From contig JBBRCA010000001.1 of NCBI GenBank assembly GCA_038205325.1, positions 4,603-68,602 on the forward strand: a stretch of 64,000 bases of DNA. Direction: 5' to 3'. Position 1 is the stretch's first letter; every line of letters begins with the position of its first letter. This stretch comes from Terriglobales bacterium (GTDB lineage: Bacteria > Acidobacteriota > Terriglobia > Terriglobales > Acidobacteriaceae). Both the position numbers and the translations under genes were made by a program. The notes under the pieces are model-generated. The model was not told the DNA's origin. It worked only from the letters and a program-made list of their open reading frames with translations, and ran no database searches. Shown here piece by piece: positions 33,433-43,534 of the stretch.

Positions 33433-34830
33433 ATGAACCACGTTCTGATCGTCGACGACGAAGCCGACATCCGCGACTCGCTGGAGGGTATCCTGCGCGA
33501 AGAGGACTACGCCGTCACCACCACTGGGAGCGCCACCGAAGCCCTCGCCCTGCTGCGCGATGCGCCCTATGAGGCGGTGCTGCTCGACATCTGGCTGCCC
33601 GACGGCGACGGCCTCGACGTGCTCGCCAAAATCAAAGGTGAAAACCCTGCTCAGCCTCTCGCCGATTCGCCCGAGGTCATCATGATCTCCGGCCACGGGA
33701 CCATCGAAGCAGCGGTGCGCGCGACCAAACTCGGCGCGTACGACTTCCTCGAAAAGCCGCTCTCGCTCGACCGCACGCTGCTGGTTCTGCGCAATGCTAT
33801 CAAGGCCCACCAACTCCGCGAAGACAATCAGGAGTTCGCACGCCAACTCGCCGGCAAAGGCCCCGTCACCGGCCAGTCGGTGCCGATGAAAGCGCTTCGC
33901 CAGCAAATCAAATTGATGGCGCCCACCAACGGTCGCGTGCTCATCTACGGGGAGTCGGGCACGGGCAAGGAACTCATCGCGCGCGCGATGCACGCCGAAT
34001 CGCTGCGCCGCGAGCGGGTTTTCGTCGAGCTCAACTGCGCCGCCATCCCCGAAGACTTTATCGAAACCGAACTCTTCGGCTACCGCCATGGCGCAGGCGG
34101 CCCTGGCCAGCCCGCCGAAAAACGCGGAACATTTGAGCGCGCCGACGGCGGCACATTGTTCCTCGATGAGGTTGGCGACATGAGCCTGAAAACCCAGGCG
34201 AAGGTGCTGCGGGCGTTGGACGAGCAGCGCTTCTACCCGGTTGGCGCCTCCACGCCGGTCCACATTGACGCGCGCGTCATCGCCGCCACCAACAAAGACC
34301 TCGAAGAAGAAATCGCGCGCGGCAACTTCCGCGAAGACCTCTTCTACCGCCTCAACGTCATTCCGTTTTTCGTTCCTCCACTGCGCGAGCGCAAGGAAGA
34401 TATTCCTCTGCTGGTGAAGGAGTTCCTGCACGATCTCGGCACGCAATACGGCCGCCCGCGCGTCGAAATCTCCGACGCCGCGCTCACGCAACTGAAGTCC
34501 TATCATTGGCCTGGCAACGTTCGCGAGCTGCGCAACGTCATCGAGCGCGTCCTGATCCTCAATCCGAAAGCGACGCGCCTCGAACCTAAACACCTGCCCA
34601 TGCTGGTGCAGCGCACGGATGGTGTTGCCGGAACCGCCGCCGGGCGCGGCGCGAACCGCGAAGAGTTTACGACGCTGCTGCAAGCCCGCGAAGCCTACGA
34701 GCGCGACTACATCCTCAAGGAAATCGATCGCTCGCACGGCAACGTGACCCGCGCCGCAGAAGCGCTCGGCCTCGAACGCTCGCACCTCTATCGCAAGATG
34801 AAAGCGCTCGGCATCAGCGTCGGGGAGTGA
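33433..34830 (+). CDS. NtrX-like sigma-54 AAA+ response regulator
   Basis: Receiver domain (LLDIWLPD), GESGTGKE, LFLDEVGD, GNFREDLFYRLN, WPGNVREL, Fis-type HTH. The GAFTGA loop is degenerate (YRHGAGG), as in NtrX. Confidence 0.92.
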   Translation: MNHVLIVDDEADIRDSLEGILREEDYAVTTTGSATEALALLRDAPYEAVLLDIWLPDGDGLDVLAKIKGENPAQPLADSPEVIMISGHGTIEAAVRATKLGAYDFLEKPLSLDRTLLVLRNAIKAHQLREDNQEFARQLAGKGPVTGQSVPMKALRQQIKLMAPTNGRVLIYGESGTGKELIARAMHAESLRRERVFVELNCAAIPEDFIETELFGYRHGAGGPGQPAEKRGTFERADGGTLFLDEVGDMSLKTQAKVLRALDEQRFYPVGASTPVHIDARVIAATNKDLEEEIARGNFREDLFYRLNVIPFFVPPLRERKEDIPLLVKEFLHDLGTQYGRPRVEISDAALTQLKSYHWPGNVRELRNVIERVLILNPKATRLEPKHLPMLVQRTDGVAGTAAGRGANREEFTTLLQAREAYERDYILKEIDRSHGNVTRAAEALGLERSHLYRKMKALGISVGE

Positions 34831-35058: not shown

Positions 35059-36064
35059 GATGATTATCCAGTTAGCTCAGGCGTAGCGATAAGTTGTTTG
35101 TAGGTAATGGTTTGTGTGCCTAGGGTGGCCCTGATGAGCCTTTCCAGCAGGTCCGGTTCCATGGTTCTGCGATTGAGCCTGTAGTTGAATTCCGCGACGT
35201 AGCCTTCGAGGTGTTTGGCTTCGACCGCATGGTGGGTTCCGAGTAGGAAGCGTTTGAGGTTGGCCAGCGCGATGTGGACCCAGGGAAACAGTTTGTGAGC
35301 CGGTTCCGGCTGGCCAGAAATCGGGATGGCCGTGTGCTCGAAACCATGTTCCTGGACCTGCCAGTAGCCGCTCCAGCCGTCGGTCAGCACCTGGCTTCCG
35401 GGTCGCACCTTGTCGCTCAAGAAACCGTTCAGGCTCTTGCCGGCGGCGTCGGGCAGAACGCGCAGCGCGGCAAAGCCCGGCACCGGCGGCCTTCCCGGCT
35501 GGCCCTGGGCGCGGTGCTCGACGGCGACCGCGACCACGGCCTTGTCCTGGCCGCCGCGTCCACGCCTGCCGCCCTCTTCGACCCCGCCCACATAGCCTTC
35601 GTCGACTTCGACCACGCCGCCCAGGGTATAGCCGCGGTCGCGGTCAGCCATCGCCTTGCGGATCTTGTGCTGCATCATCCACGCGGTCTGATAGCAGACG
35701 CCGATCTCCTTGCTCAACTGCACCGCCGAGATGCCCTTCTTGCCGTGACTCATGCGGTAGATGGCCCAGAACCAGCTCGACAAGGGCGTGCGCGTCTTGT
35801 GAAAGACGGTTCCCGCCGTCACCGAGCACTGATAGCCGCAGCGCGCGCATTCATGCACCCGACGCGACGCGATGTAGCCCCGGCTCACGCCATCGCAACC
35901 TGGACACCGGAACCCGTCCGGCCAGCGCTGCCGCGACAACTGTGCACCGCACTGAGACTCCTCGCCAAACCGCAACCGAAACTCCCGCACCGTCAGCATT
36001 CCACTCTTCTTCATGCCCAATAGAATATCGCCTTTTCATCGCCTGAGCAAGATGGATAATCATC
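35059..36064 (-). mobile_element. IS1595-family (ISXO2-like) insertion sequence, 1006 bp
   Basis: Terminal IRs GATGATTATCCAGTTAGCTCAGGCG (35059-35083) and the reverse complement of 36040-36064 match at 22/25. Flanked by the 8-bp duplication TTGTCGGA (35051-35058, 36065-36072). Confidence 0.95.
35064..36014 (-). CDS. IS1595-family transposase
   Basis: N-terminal Zn ribbon (RWPDGFRCPGC...ECARC), TAGTVFHKT, DDE motifs VEVDEGYVG, TDGWSGY, YVAEFNYRLN. Confidence 0.95.
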   Translation of the reverse strand: MKKSGMLTVREFRLRFGEESQCGAQLSRQRWPDGFRCPGCDGVSRGYIASRRVHECARCGYQCSVTAGTVFHKTRTPLSSWFWAIYRMSHGKKGISAVQLSKEIGVCYQTAWMMQHKIRKAMADRDRGYTLGGVVEVDEGYVGGVEEGGRRGRGGQDKAVVAVAVEHRAQGQPGRPPVPGFAALRVLPDAAGKSLNGFLSDKVRPGSQVLTDGWSGYWQVQEHGFEHTAIPISGQPEPAHKLFPWVHIALANLKRFLLGTHHAVEAKHLEGYVAEFNYRLNRRTMEPDLLERLIRATLGTQTITYKQLIATPELTG

Positions 36065-36776
36065 TTGTCGGATTGCTCGCGCCCCCGAACAAGCGGTCGC
36101 TGGTCTCAAACAAGCCGTACCCTCCGCCCGCCGAAATCCAGGGTGTCAAGGCGTGGCCGAGAGGAAACGCCAGACGCGCGGATGGAGTGACGTAGAACGT
36201 CGCGTTGCTGGTGGGCAGGAGCGCATTTCCGTTCGTGAGTCGATGGTTCGGCCCGACCAGCGCGGGCACGTCCAGCCACAATTCGCTATGACGAAAGGAA
36301 TGAACTTCCCGGCCATAGTTGAGTTCGAGCGACATGCTGCTGCTGTTCACAATCTCCTTCGTTCCGTTCCCCGAAGCGACCGCCAGCGCATTGGAGGGTA
36401 GGAACTCGCCACCAATTGTGAAGCCGAGCAGATTTTTCCCGTCCTGCGCTCCGGCGACAAATGGAACCATGCTCGAGAGAACAAGACACGAAATTGGAAT
36501 CCGACGGACGAGAGCAAAACGACGGTAAAGAGCACTCATGTGTCTTGGATTCCTCCGTGTCACAAAGGTGAGGGAGAATTCCGGAACGTGTCCGCCACCC
36601 AGTGCGTGGCCCCCGCACTCTTTATGCAACAGTCCGGCGGAGGGTCTCTTGATGTCGACCGCTTTAATCCACACATGTTCATAGATTTGCAGTTGCATGC
36701 ACAGGTGGAGCGCGCCTAAGGTACTTTTTAGCTGATGTCGCGCAGTAAGTCAGCAATCGAACCGATGGCAGACTTG

Positions 36777-36898
36777 GAGGATCGACGACCGACGCGAGTC
36801 GGAAACCGGTCATCCAACCCACCAGAGGATCAATTGCCGACGGAGTCGAATATTAGTCAACGGAAGAGCCACGGGATGCAATATCCGACGCGAGTCGG
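36777..36898 (+). repeat. Three ~48-bp-period units with CCGAC-GCGA-GTCGG hairpin core
   Basis: Cores at 36789 (CCGACGCGAGTCGG), 36837 (CCGACGGAGTCGAA) and 36885 (CCGACGCGAGTCGG). GAGGATC at 36777 and 36825. Confidence 0.7.
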
Positions 36899-36961
36899 AG
36901 GTTGTCCAGCGGCAGACGCTGAAGACGCAATGTCCGGCCACACTGCGAGATTGTCAATGAT

Positions 36962-36999
36962 GAAAGCGCCAGAGATCGCAAGGTTTCTGGCGTTTTCGT
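36962..36999 (+). terminator. Terminator-like hairpin with GCAA tetraloop
   Basis: 16-bp stem GAAAGCGCCAGAGATC/GGTTTCTGGCGTTTTC with 3 G.U pairs, followed by T-rich sequence. Confidence 0.7.
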
Positions 37000-37049
37000 T
37001 TGTGCCGGGCGTCTAGCTGGGGGACGCCGCAGCGGGCCGGTTGTCTGCG

Positions 37050-37500
37050 TTATTTCCAGGTGAGCGGCACGTCGTACAGAGGAAAATTGGCATCGCCGAC
37101 AAGATCTGCGAGTCGAGAGGGAATTTCACTTTTCCCGGGAAGATGGAACCATTCAACGTGAGTTGCTCGATCTCCTTATCCATCGCAGCCACTACCTCGT
37201 CGGTCGGGACAGGGAGAAGTCCCTCGCCCGCTCAAGCTGATCTTTTCGGCTGACGCGATCCACCCGATCCGCGGCGAGGATGCCCTTGCCAATCTTCTTC
37301 GCTAGAGCGGGGCACAGTCGAAACCACGAGCTGAGAGTGGGGCCGTCGGCCAGCGCGACCATGACCTCTTCGCCACGGGCCGCGGCGGACGCTAGTCCGG
37401 CGAATTGGGTCTCGGCGTATTGGACGCCGACTTTCGTAAGCTTATCGCAGGCGGACTGAATCGGTGTAGAGAGAATTGTGATGAGAGTGTGTTCGGACCG
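37050..37500 (-). pseudogene. Degraded, frameshifted gene remnant (unknown family)
   Basis: Protein-like segments in different frames (LTKVGVQYAETQFAGLASAAARGEEVMVALADG...; GEGLLPVPTDEVVAAMDKEIEQL...DVPLTWK*). No start codon identified. Confidence 0.4.
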
Positions 37501-37512
37501 GCTGCTGGTGGC

Positions 37513-39018
37513 TTATTCTGCGGCACCTAAAAGCCAGCCCGTCGTTAACCCCTTGCTCTTCAACCAGTCCTTAACGGCACTCTTTTTGTCCGATAGTATT
37601 CGGTCGATTTCATGACCGGTGGGTGCCGACCACAACTGCCAGTCAGCCAAGCGCGCAACTATCTTCTTGATATGTTGTAGATCCTTATCACTTAAATCGC
37701 GGAGGAACACGCGTGATCGATCATCGGCGTCAGCGAGCTCCAATCTCGCGCACACCGCACCGTGCAAAAGTTCAAACCAAGCCATCATCGATTTCGAGCC
37801 AAAAATTCTCTCCAATTTTCGTTGCGTGTCCGTCTTGACCGATGTGTCGCTGCTCCAGTTATGAAGTGCTAAGTCCACTATGAAATTACTGAGAGAGATC
37901 ACGTTCGCGAGTTCGCTGTCTCGCTTGTAACTCCCGCCTGTCAGGCTGTCCCCGAGTGGTTCTTGAAAAATAAAGTTTGCAAACAACGACTTCTTAAGAA
38001 CGTCGAGGGTGAGCGGAGTCGCTGCTGAACTGCGATTTCCAGTAGAAATAAACTTCGCCATTCCGTTCTCGGAACTTTGAAGTACCCCATTAAAAAGATA
38101 ACTGCGGAATCGTTCATTAACTTCCCCACGCGTAAGCTGCTTGACACCGCGAAGGTACTGAATGAAACCTTCTTCGGATTTTGGCTTTCCGTCCTCTTGA
38201 TTTCGATATGACTCAAAATCACTGCCGAATTCGTCCCCTAGCTTCCTAACCATGATTGACGCAAAAAACCGTGTTTGAGAATATTTGTCGTGAGCTGAGA
38301 TGTTCGTGTCGTTCAGTAACCTCAAATCGGGGTTCAAATACACCTTGCACTCAAAGCTTCTCCTACCGTTCCATAGCAACGCGGCAACTTTATGTTGTCC
38401 ATCGAAAATTACGATTTGGTTGCCGCGAACTCGCCCGATCGACGGTTGCAATACGGGATGATTTTGAAAGTGCCTGAAAAGCTCAAACATCTTTTCTTCG
38501 ATGAGAAACCTAGGCTGGAGCCCCATGCCAGCGTCGTCCGTGTCGTCACTGTCCAAGAGCGAGATCGGTAGAGTTGCGTAAAAATACTCCCATCCGGTCG
38601 TTGGGCATTTGTAAAGCTCGTATGTAATATCGCTTCCGCTTGAACTGAGATGAATTTTTTGTGCTTTAGCGGCAGTCGAGCAGTTCTGCCCGAAAATCAA
38701 CTTATCGTTCTTGGCGAAGTAAAGCAAGAGATCGTGGAGAGTAACATCGCGCGAAGCTGCGAAGAATTCTTGCATCTTCAGTCGTACACGGAAATCTTCT
38801 AGTGGAAGCGCGCCCTTCGCCTTGTTGTGCATTTCACACATCGGCGCAATGTTGTCTAGGACACTCGCGCCACCCATTGCGAAGGCCCGGATATGGTCGA
38901 AGTGAAGTGGAGAATCTTCAGAGATCGAATGGCTTGTCGCGAAACAGTTTCTTCCGTGTCTCGATAAAATCTGCTGCTTTTCTGATTCATCTAGCTGGCG
39001 CTTTAGCGTTATTGCCAT
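37513..39018 (-). CDS. HNH endonuclease fused to ParB/DndB-like DGQHK domain; putative defence protein
   Basis: N-terminal CFATSH...HFDHIRAFAMGG...DNIAPMCEMHNKAKG; central LQPR...IFDGQHKVAAL. AGGAGA RBS. Visibly AT-richer than rpoC. Confidence 0.82.
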   Translation of the reverse strand: MAITLKRQLDESEKQQILSRHGRNCFATSHSISEDSPLHFDHIRAFAMGGASVLDNIAPMCEMHNKAKGALPLEDFRVRLKMQEFFAASRDVTLHDLLLYFAKNDKLIFGQNCSTAAKAQKIHLSSSGSDITYELYKCPTTGWEYFYATLPISLLDSDDTDDAGMGLQPRFLIEEKMFELFRHFQNHPVLQPSIGRVRGNQIVIFDGQHKVAALLWNGRRSFECKVYLNPDLRLLNDTNISAHDKYSQTRFFASIMVRKLGDEFGSDFESYRNQEDGKPKSEEGFIQYLRGVKQLTRGEVNERFRSYLFNGVLQSSENGMAKFISTGNRSSAATPLTLDVLKKSLFANFIFQEPLGDSLTGGSYKRDSELANVISLSNFIVDLALHNWSSDTSVKTDTQRKLERIFGSKSMMAWFELLHGAVCARLELADADDRSRVFLRDLSDKDLQHIKKIVARLADWQLWSAPTGHEIDRILSDKKSAVKDWLKSKGLTTGWLLGAAE

Positions 39019-39118: not shown

Positions 39119-43309
<4,191 letters not shown>

Positions 43310-43534
43310 AGTTTTCTCTCTCCGTGTGCAGTGCTTAGCTCGATGCCAACTTTGCGTTTCGCCCTCGTATTTGCTGAGGACTTGTGTTGCGAGCTTCGCT
43401 GCTGTTACTGCTGCTTTACTTTCGCGAGCAGCGCGTTTCTTTGCGCCACTCACTCAATCTTTAGGCCTTCGCTTTCCGCCCGTCTGCTCTTGCCGTTACA
43501 CAAGCTCAGAGCGGACAGACGGAACGCGGTATAG

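Follow-up and report, generated by a model that had tools for sequence, protein, structure and literature searches.

The window analysed here is a 64,000-nucleotide (nt) stretch of the genome of a Terriglobales bacterium of the Acidobacteriaceae (assembly GCA_038205325.1, contig JBBRCA010000001.1, positions 4,603 to 68,602 of the forward strand). Positions ~36730-37003 on its + strand are predicted to be an independently transcribed gene for a non-coding structured RNA of ~274 nt. Judged from comparison with its relatives, this RNA is a modular non-coding RNA built from repeated hairpin arms, and it is the minimal member of a new, previously uncatalogued Acidobacteriaceae RNA family. A first-pass annotation of the DNA had placed an array of GNRA hairpins (N, any base; R, purine) with a terminator at 36770-37000. 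The feature is real and a + strand structured RNA of repeated GNRA hairpins was supported, with promoter box, terminator and arms kept through compensatory changes in relatives, but its true extent is wider, at ~36667-37003. The roles suggested for it, namely a CsrA sponge, an antitoxin or guide array, a partner of the nearby HNH gene or a set of DNA palindromes, were not supported.

Conservation, fold and covariation

A BLAST-type search revealed that a block of ~340 nt (36667-37003) is conserved in relatives from the same genus. From 36860 through the terminator the identity to homologues in genomes G032, G016 and G020 was 75-78%. Three alignments were examined: A1 with eight short forms including that of the window, A2 with 15 long forms and A3 with 114 distinct modules. 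The module is an irregular extended hairpin (arm) of ~45-50 nt with a C-GNRA-G cap, and neighbouring modules are joined by a purine linker of 4-5 nt.

RNAalifold was run on A1 and separately on A2, and in both the 5' CUGAUGA..GCAGU paired with the 3' ACUGC..UUGUCAA to form a closing helix, P1. This helix was also present in the minimum free energy (MFE) structure of the window RNA alone, where the 5' strand (UGAUGUC.GCAGU, 36733-36746, +) pairs with the 3' strand (ACUGCGAGAUUGUCA, 36942-36956, +). Pair counts agreed. Four of the five pairs of GCAGU/ACUGC were formed in all 65 distinct homologues and the fifth in 48 of the 65. Exchanges within P1 included CG/UG/UA and UA/CG/GC. CUGAUG was invariant across the aligned homologues.

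The arms were covered by A3. RNAalifold on this alignment recovered the apical stem only, and the basal stem was tested by an explicit pairing model. Under this model the apical stems were 94% paired and the basal stem (CCNN/NNGG plus GG/CC) was 72% paired. The whole 12-pair model was 81% paired compared to 18-42% in slid registers. Double changes were found at 12 of 12 tested pairs, with 137 cells changed on both sides, and 0 of 500 shuffles scored as high. Conservation and covariation in relatives, the absence of which the first-pass annotation had regarded as fatal to a structured RNA, were both found. One apical position was AU in 51 units, GC in 45 and GU in 18. The three inner apical pairs included 45 G·U or U·G cells and zero unpaired cells, and A·C was absent. 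Wobbles without mismatches are expected only where the + strand RNA is under selection, and the pattern therefore points to such selection. Compensatory change and strand-specific tolerance of G·U were both seen.

The folding of the 276-nt stretch was compared with that of shuffled sequence. The + strand folded better (z -4.7) and was equalled by none of 200 shuffles, but the - strand was close (z -4.4). The strand is therefore given by the comparative data and not by the fold of a single sequence.

The loops of the 114 modules were GCAA in 65, GCGA in 28, GAGA in 13, GAAA in 5, GUGA in 2 and GUAA in 1. Every arm in A2 was GNRA-capped save two with single-base exceptions. Modules shared ~52% column identity with one another, and the same module compared among 15 species shared 82%. 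The GG of the recurrent GGAGGA was paired with CC in the stem and lay outside the loops.

Architecture of the window RNA

The window RNA is the shortest form, with two good arms and one decayed arm. The hairpin core CCGACGCGAGTCGG occurs exactly at 36789 and 36885 on the + strand, within an exact 15-mer, CCGACGCGAGTCGGA, at 36789-36803 and 36885-36899, 96 nt apart. A degenerate core, CCGACGGAGTCGA, starts at 36837, where a 1-nt deletion leaves a 4-bp stem and a triloop. GGAT precedes all three cores (GAGGATCG, GAGGATCA and CGGGATGC), so the sequence reported earlier for these positions was accurate.

Module 1 is an extended arm at 36765-36826 (+) with the apical hairpin CCGAC-GCGA-GUCGG at 36789-36802. 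It was matched by R1, the covariance model of the module, with 35.6 bits (E 8e-6), and its extended stem UUGGAGGAUCG/CGGUCAUCCAA was present in the MFE structure. Module 3 is an extended arm at 36860-36922 (+) with the apical hairpin (U)CCGAC-GCGA-GUCGG(A) at 36884-36899, and it was matched with 46.8 bits (E 2.8e-8). The degenerate middle module occupies 36827-36859 (+), with CCGAC-GGA-GUCGA at 36837-36849 and the 1-nt loop deletion. It gave no R1 match, and in the MFE structure 36827-36841 formed the base of arm 1. None of the other seven short forms had a GNRA hairpin in this slot between the two arms. The sequence between the cores had been described as unrelated, but it forms part of homologous modules, both 36765-36826 and 36860-36922 being recognised by the covariance model. 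The 48-nt period noted at first reflects a family-wide property, arm spacing in relatives peaking at 49-50 nt and 97-100 nt.

Promoter and terminator

A sigma-70-like promoter region for the window RNA is predicted at 36687-36722 (+). It contains a box, TTGCAGTTGCATGCACAG, at 36687-36704, a -35-like TTGCAT at 36693-36698, an 18-nt spacer and a -10-like TAAGGT at 36717-36722. Transcription would start at ~36730. A further box, ATCCACACA(A/T), lies upstream at 36667-36677 (+) and keeps a constant distance to the promoter box in relatives of several genera; it may act as an activator site or an UP-like site.

The same frame was fixed across the aligned homologues. The ATCCACACA box is followed by the TTGCAnTTGCnTGCACAG box, which contains a -35-like TTGCRT, then by an 18-nt spacer, a -10-like TAnnnT and, ~8 nt later, the invariant CUGAUGA. 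The spacing from box to TAnnnT was constant in all homologues. At the 3' end ACUGCGAG-AU-nnUCAA precedes a near-invariant terminator, GCGCCAGAG-loop-CUCUGGCGUUUUCGUU. With zero mismatches allowed, the promoter box was found at the RNA locus only in four of five genomes searched, the copy at the locus of G097 being one position off. With two mismatches the number of matches in the five genomes was at control level, and no regulon sharing the promoter was detected. A sigma-54 promoter was considered and rejected, as no conserved GG-N10-GC element was seen on inspection.

A Rho-independent terminator is predicted at 36959-37003 (+). Its arms, GAUGAAAGCGCCAGAGAUC-GCAA-GGUUUCUGGCGUUUUCGUU (36959-37000), form a 19-bp GCAA-capped stem with G·U pairs, followed by the U-rich tail UUUUCGUUU. 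The + strand terminator that had been proposed downstream of the cores is thus real. It was kept in all homologues, where GU, AU and GC pairs were exchanged and A·C pairs were almost absent. A simple terminator scanner did not detect it; the length of the stem and the break in the T run are the probable reasons. The RNA is therefore predicted to have its own promoter and its own intrinsic terminator, both conserved with it across genera. The gene is free-standing, with neighbours that differ among genomes and downstream genes that are mostly convergent.

Distribution and arm number

Homologues were found in 29 of 101 genomes of the genus by BLAST and in 34 of 101 by the covariance model. Each carrier genome had one locus, except that G110 has a duplicated copy and G095 gave one weak stray match. 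In the window and in the genome it comes from, R1 matched the RNA locus only. Arrays were also present in two further Acidobacteriaceae genera (g9 and g13), and in a Terracidiphilus metagenome-assembled genome (MAG) the same promoter, CUGAUG, 3' strand and terminator surrounded an RNA of ~873 nt. The promoter box, CUGAUG, 3' ACUGC..UCAA and terminator were present in all homologues. No convincing R1 match was found outside the Acidobacteriaceae among 151 genomes representing 60 families of the phylum.

An exact pattern of promoter box plus CUGAUG recovered 53 loci from GTDB species genomes. Nearly all were in Acidobacteriaceae MAGs, labelled Granulicella sp., Terracidiphilus sp. or Acidobacteriaceae bacterium and originating from peat, bog and soil. 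There were 234 module matches in the 53 loci and all lay on the strand of the promoter. Both the terminator and GNRA arms were recovered in 42 of the 53, giving RNAs of 274-1171 nt with 2-15 strictly defined GNRA arms. Across the family arm number ranged from 2 to more than 15. RNA length clustered near 274, 366, 475, 520, 790, 870, 965, 1065-1120 and 1171 nt, and within the genus the length of the element, counted from the upstream box, clustered at ~335, 430, 540, 584 and 786 nt. At least 120 further pattern matches were found in Joint Genome Institute (JGI) metagenomes.

A permissive cmscan of window positions 35800-37800, of eight homologous loci and of a 1.17-kb member gave no family match in Rfam 15. 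The best matches were chance-level snoRNA and miRNA hits of 13-23 bits, far below gathering scores. This outcome of a check suggested at the outset is consistent with an uncatalogued RNA. No paper describing the RNA was found in a literature search.

Genome G110 carries two copies of the RNA gene on two contigs (L020 and L046). Both are 538-nt elements with identical GNRA hairpins, each is 86% identical to the query, and they share two upstream genes and differ in their downstream genes. The pair is either a recent segmental duplication or an artefact of assembly or binning. Four GTDB loci (L098, L107, L111 and L118) belong to the genus by GTDB and bear the NCBI titles Acetobacteraceae, Verrucomicrobia, Verrucomicrobiae and Candidatus Aquilonibacter. 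The coordinates of their RNA matches agree with those of genomes G077, G104, G025 and G036, and these records are probably mislabelled MAGs.

Proposed mode of action

The reading tentatively favoured, at a little under even confidence, is that the RNA acts in trans as a multivalent platform for binding, which could be a sponge or a scaffold. Its partner, most likely a protein but not CsrA, would recognise the repeated arms with their GNRA caps and perhaps also the invariant P1 region. The number of arms would set the capacity, as in other repeat-built titrating small RNAs (sRNAs). This reading is favoured because the build is modular, the copy number of arms can evolve and the same conserved features recur in each arm. 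Arm number varies between species, and individual arms are conserved within clades.

Several results weigh against this reading. Eight species have two good arms only; multivalency may therefore be non-essential, and P1 could be the real functional site. Loop identity depends on position, with GAGA at module 2 in 14 of the 15 long forms, which suits specialised tertiary contacts no less than a generic sponge. No neighbour conserved family-wide pointed to a partner, synteny being only patchy. The promoter was not seen by a scanner based on the E. coli-type consensus. Among candidate binders, ProQ was not found in five carrier genomes (G000, G020, G025, G097 and G122), and the L7Ae/YbxF family (PF01248) was found in none of five carriers, with positive controls. 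A canonical Hfq was encoded in every genome examined, most of which also had two weaker Hfq/Sm-like paralogues (30-40 bits), and Hfq copy number, three almost everywhere, was unrelated to the presence of the RNA.

No classical global RNA-binding protein other than Hfq was found in these genomes. With CsrA not found in the genus and neither ProQ nor L7Ae found in the five carriers, this is an unusual set of RNA-binding proteins. A kink-turn or L7Ae-type ribonucleoprotein, prompted by UGAUGA and CUGA-like boxes, was considered and rejected, as PF01248 was not found in the five carriers.

A broader proposal, possible but held with considerable doubt, is that this RNA is the first member to be described of a lineage-specific "beads-in-a-loop" class. 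Its arms would be held by the terminal helix and would either titrate an unknown global RNA-binding protein or assemble an RNA-only particle by GNRA-helix docking. If this were true it would be a new system of post-transcriptional control in very abundant peat and soil bacteria in which CsrA and ProQ were not detected.

Docking between RNA elements could also be the function in itself. GNRA loops would insert into helical receptors, such as tandem GG:CC pairs, and yield a compact or self-assembling RNA. Such RNA-only self-assembling architectures have recently been described for other large ornate bacterial RNAs. The near-universal GNRA capping in A2 and the fixing of loop type by position fit this idea, as do the closing helix that gathers all arms and the length of the RNAs, up to ~1.2 kb. 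A GG/CC tandem pair was present in the basal stem of 62 of the 114 units, and in GNRA-helix docking such tandem GG/CC pairs are, as Costa and Michel are said to have reported in 1995, the preferred type of receptor for GYAA loops. However, the 11-nt receptor motif was not seen, and GNRA loops also occur simply as stable caps. Loop type was uncorrelated with the receptor-like pair of the same or neighbouring module, in a test dominated by shared ancestry. Docking as the main function is the leading alternative to the favoured reading, and it is considered rather unlikely.

A base-pairing regulatory RNA or RNA sponge is less probable still. In that case the conserved single-stranded linkers of purines (AAGAG, CGGAAG), or else the invariant CUGAUGA, would base-pair to mRNAs or sRNAs, and Hfq might assist. 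The linkers and the 5' CUGAUGA are conserved beyond the needs of pairing within the RNA, and the genomes examined encode Hfq and two Hfq-like paralogues. Most of the conserved bases, however, lie inside helices, the linkers are just 4-5 nt long, and the presence of Hfq does not track the RNA.

Neighbouring genes

The proximity of an HNH-ParB nuclease gene and a vapBC remnant to the window RNA would fit a repeat RNA linked to defence or to a toxin-antitoxin (TA) system, working as a type III antitoxin or a guide array with one of these neighbours. In addition, genes of the vapBC or Phd-like type are found downstream, in convergent orientation, in G016, G099 and G104 and on contig C57 of the window's genome. 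This reading is largely refuted because there is no co-occurrence. The expected partnership with the HNH gene failed the comparison with relatives, in which an HNH-ParB homologue was found at 0 of 134 other loci, and vapBC is limited to a small related subgroup. No same-strand toxin gene or cas gene follows the array; the absence of a toxin gene had already been remarked on, and no + strand gene follows in the window. The repeats are divergent and structured, not near-identical as in a ToxI-like array, downstream genes vary, and P1 closes the RNA, which is predicted to have a promoter and terminator of its own. A role of this kind is now very improbable.

A vapBC-type (PIN/Phd) module is convergent downstream in G016. 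What is left in the window, at 37050-37231 (-), is ~34 amino acids (aa) from the C-terminus of a Phd/YefM-like antitoxin, with 62% identity to the gene that is intact in G016, and approximately the last 20 aa of a PIN toxin, most of the toxin gene being deleted. Contig C57 (L006) of the same genome has at its end a PIN gene that is intact and lies behind a second, partial copy of the terminator of the RNA.

Recurrent neighbours among the 42 loci were an alpha/beta hydrolase gene upstream (12 of 42) and rpoC three to six genes downstream (9 of 42). PEP-CTERM, GAF-PAS histidine kinase, SDR and Usp genes also occurred in a patchy manner, and no RNA-binding protein was found among the neighbours of these loci. 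In the window rpoC is at 39119-43453 (-), and here and at loci L086, L116-L120, L130, L133 and L138 the RNA gene lies three to six genes past the rpoC 3' end and is convergent with it. The genes in between vary, being HNH-ParB and the TA remnant in the window and others elsewhere, and in these genomes the stretch that follows rpoBC seems prone to insertions.

On the other side of the RNA gene a 212-aa open reading frame (ORF) at 36060-36698 (-) has a signal-peptide-like start and resembles a truncated outer-membrane beta-barrel, with no Pfam match. Directly downstream of it, at 35064-36020 (-), is an IS1595-family transposase with a zinc ribbon and an ISXO2-like DDE domain (Pfam E 1e-29). The gene of the 212-aa ORF may have been interrupted by this insertion sequence. 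A sigma-54-dependent response regulator with receiver, AAA+ and Fis-type helix-turn-helix domains is encoded at 33433-34830 (+), ~2 kb upstream of the RNA gene. In other carrier genomes the genes upstream of the RNA include those for a GAF-PAS histidine kinase and for a PEP-CTERM protein. No link between the regulator and the RNA was established, and the promoter of the RNA is not sigma-54-like.

Coding, DNA-level and CsrA readings

Two further readings would remove the RNA altogether. In one the repeats act as DNA, as repetitive extragenic palindromes (REP) or bacterial interspersed mosaic elements (BIME), as a miniature inverted-repeat transposable element (MITE) or as tandem palindromic binding sites. 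In the other the 93-aa ORF at 36735-37016, with its 16-aa repeat, is a real protein. The cores are near-palindromic and the - strand also folds well. However, there is one locus per genome, G·U is tolerated with A·C absent on the + strand only, and the GNRA loops and terminator exist on the + strand only. The tandem protein-binding sites that had been proposed are contradicted by this asymmetry of selection between strands. A dispersed REP/BIME or MITE repeat was also rejected directly, the motif and R1 matching one locus only in the window's genome.

The ORF spans 97% of the window RNA. In relatives, by comparison, the longest ORF covers 19-83% of the RNA. Over 69 homologues the frame, length and position of the longest ORFs vary and they are no longer than in shuffled sequence, and the G016 homologue already breaks the frame of the 93-aa ORF. 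No Pfam match was found. The repeat of the ORF, which had been put forward as a possible source of the period, does not explain that of the family because 49-50 nt is not a multiple of 3. For practical purposes the DNA-element and coding readings are already refuted.

The weakest candidate was a sponge of the CsrB/RsmZ type that sequesters CsrA through repeated GGA motifs, for which the repeat-built RNA, its GGA triplets and a mild family-wide GGA enrichment (mean z 1.5) could be cited, but it is already effectively refuted: CsrA (PF02599) was found in none of 61 genomes of the genus (32 of high quality, and including that of the window) although positive controls were detected, GGA is mostly in stems, where its GG pairs with CC, the arms end in GCAA, GCGA or GAGA loops and not in GGA, and no Csr/Rsm family of Rfam matched. 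The region had also been called rich in GGA triplets, whereas the window RNA has 8 compared to 6.5 expected (z 0.7), which is no enrichment.

CsrA is the partner of the only well-understood class of repeat-built sRNA, and it was not found; the binder of this RNA, once identified, could therefore prove to be a new global regulator or lead to an RNA architecture of a new kind. Among the bacteria of soil and peat the Acidobacteriaceae are a dominant group, most of it uncultured, and to our knowledge almost nothing is known of their RNA biology. The family is a well-defined target, being single-copy and strongly conserved, with clear covariation and a genome-unique promoter box, and metagenomes of peat and soil commonly contain it. 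It can be searched for directly with the R1 covariance model and the promoter/P1 pattern, and the two-arm form of the window is a compact construct for biochemistry.

Comparison with known RNAs

The closest parallels in overall build are CsrB, RsmX, RsmY and RsmZ. They are likewise sRNAs encoded by stand-alone genes, each with a promoter and terminator of its own, and consist of repeated stem-loops whose number varies widely by species. They bind in trans in a multivalent manner, a trait that the RNA described here may share. Their motif is a loop-exposed GGA that requires CsrA or RsmA, whereas here the loops are GNRA and GGA is paired. The arms here are ~45-50 nt and are enclosed by a helix of the 5' and 3' ends, and there is no similarity to CsrB/Rsm in sequence or by covariance model. 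CrcZ and CrcY of Pseudomonas also consist of repeated elements, in their case short motifs that titrate the global RNA-binding protein Hfq. The CrcZ motifs are single-stranded and A-rich (ARN), in contrast to the conserved helices, GNRA caps and 4-5 nt purine linkers seen here, and the presence of Hfq was uncorrelated with that of the RNA.

ToxI of the type III TA systems is similar in having a tandem repeat array followed by a terminator. Its 36-nt units are near-identical and are processed by a toxin encoded immediately downstream, while the RNA here has divergent covarying hairpins and paired ends, with no toxin gene after it. STAXI and Gut-1, which were found by comparative genomics, are tandem arrays of hairpins with stable tetraloops (Weinberg et al. 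2010, PMC2864571). The resemblance is in this tandem tetraloop-hairpin appearance. In STAXI the loops are UUCG, and the motif is associated with mobile DNA-processing genes. The Rfam models of STAXI and Gut-1 do not match the RNA described here, which differs from them in that its gene is single-copy, its promoter is conserved and its ends form a closing helix.

OLE, GOLLD, HEARO, ROOL and raiA are comparable as large, heavily structured RNAs of restricted taxonomic range, and the long members of the present family, at ~1.1-1.2 kb, approach this type. Folds in that group are complex and non-repetitive, association with phages or operons is frequent, and none of the Rfam models of the group matched. 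The Acidobacteriaceae family, by contrast, concatenates one type of module and shrinks to the 274 nt of the window form.

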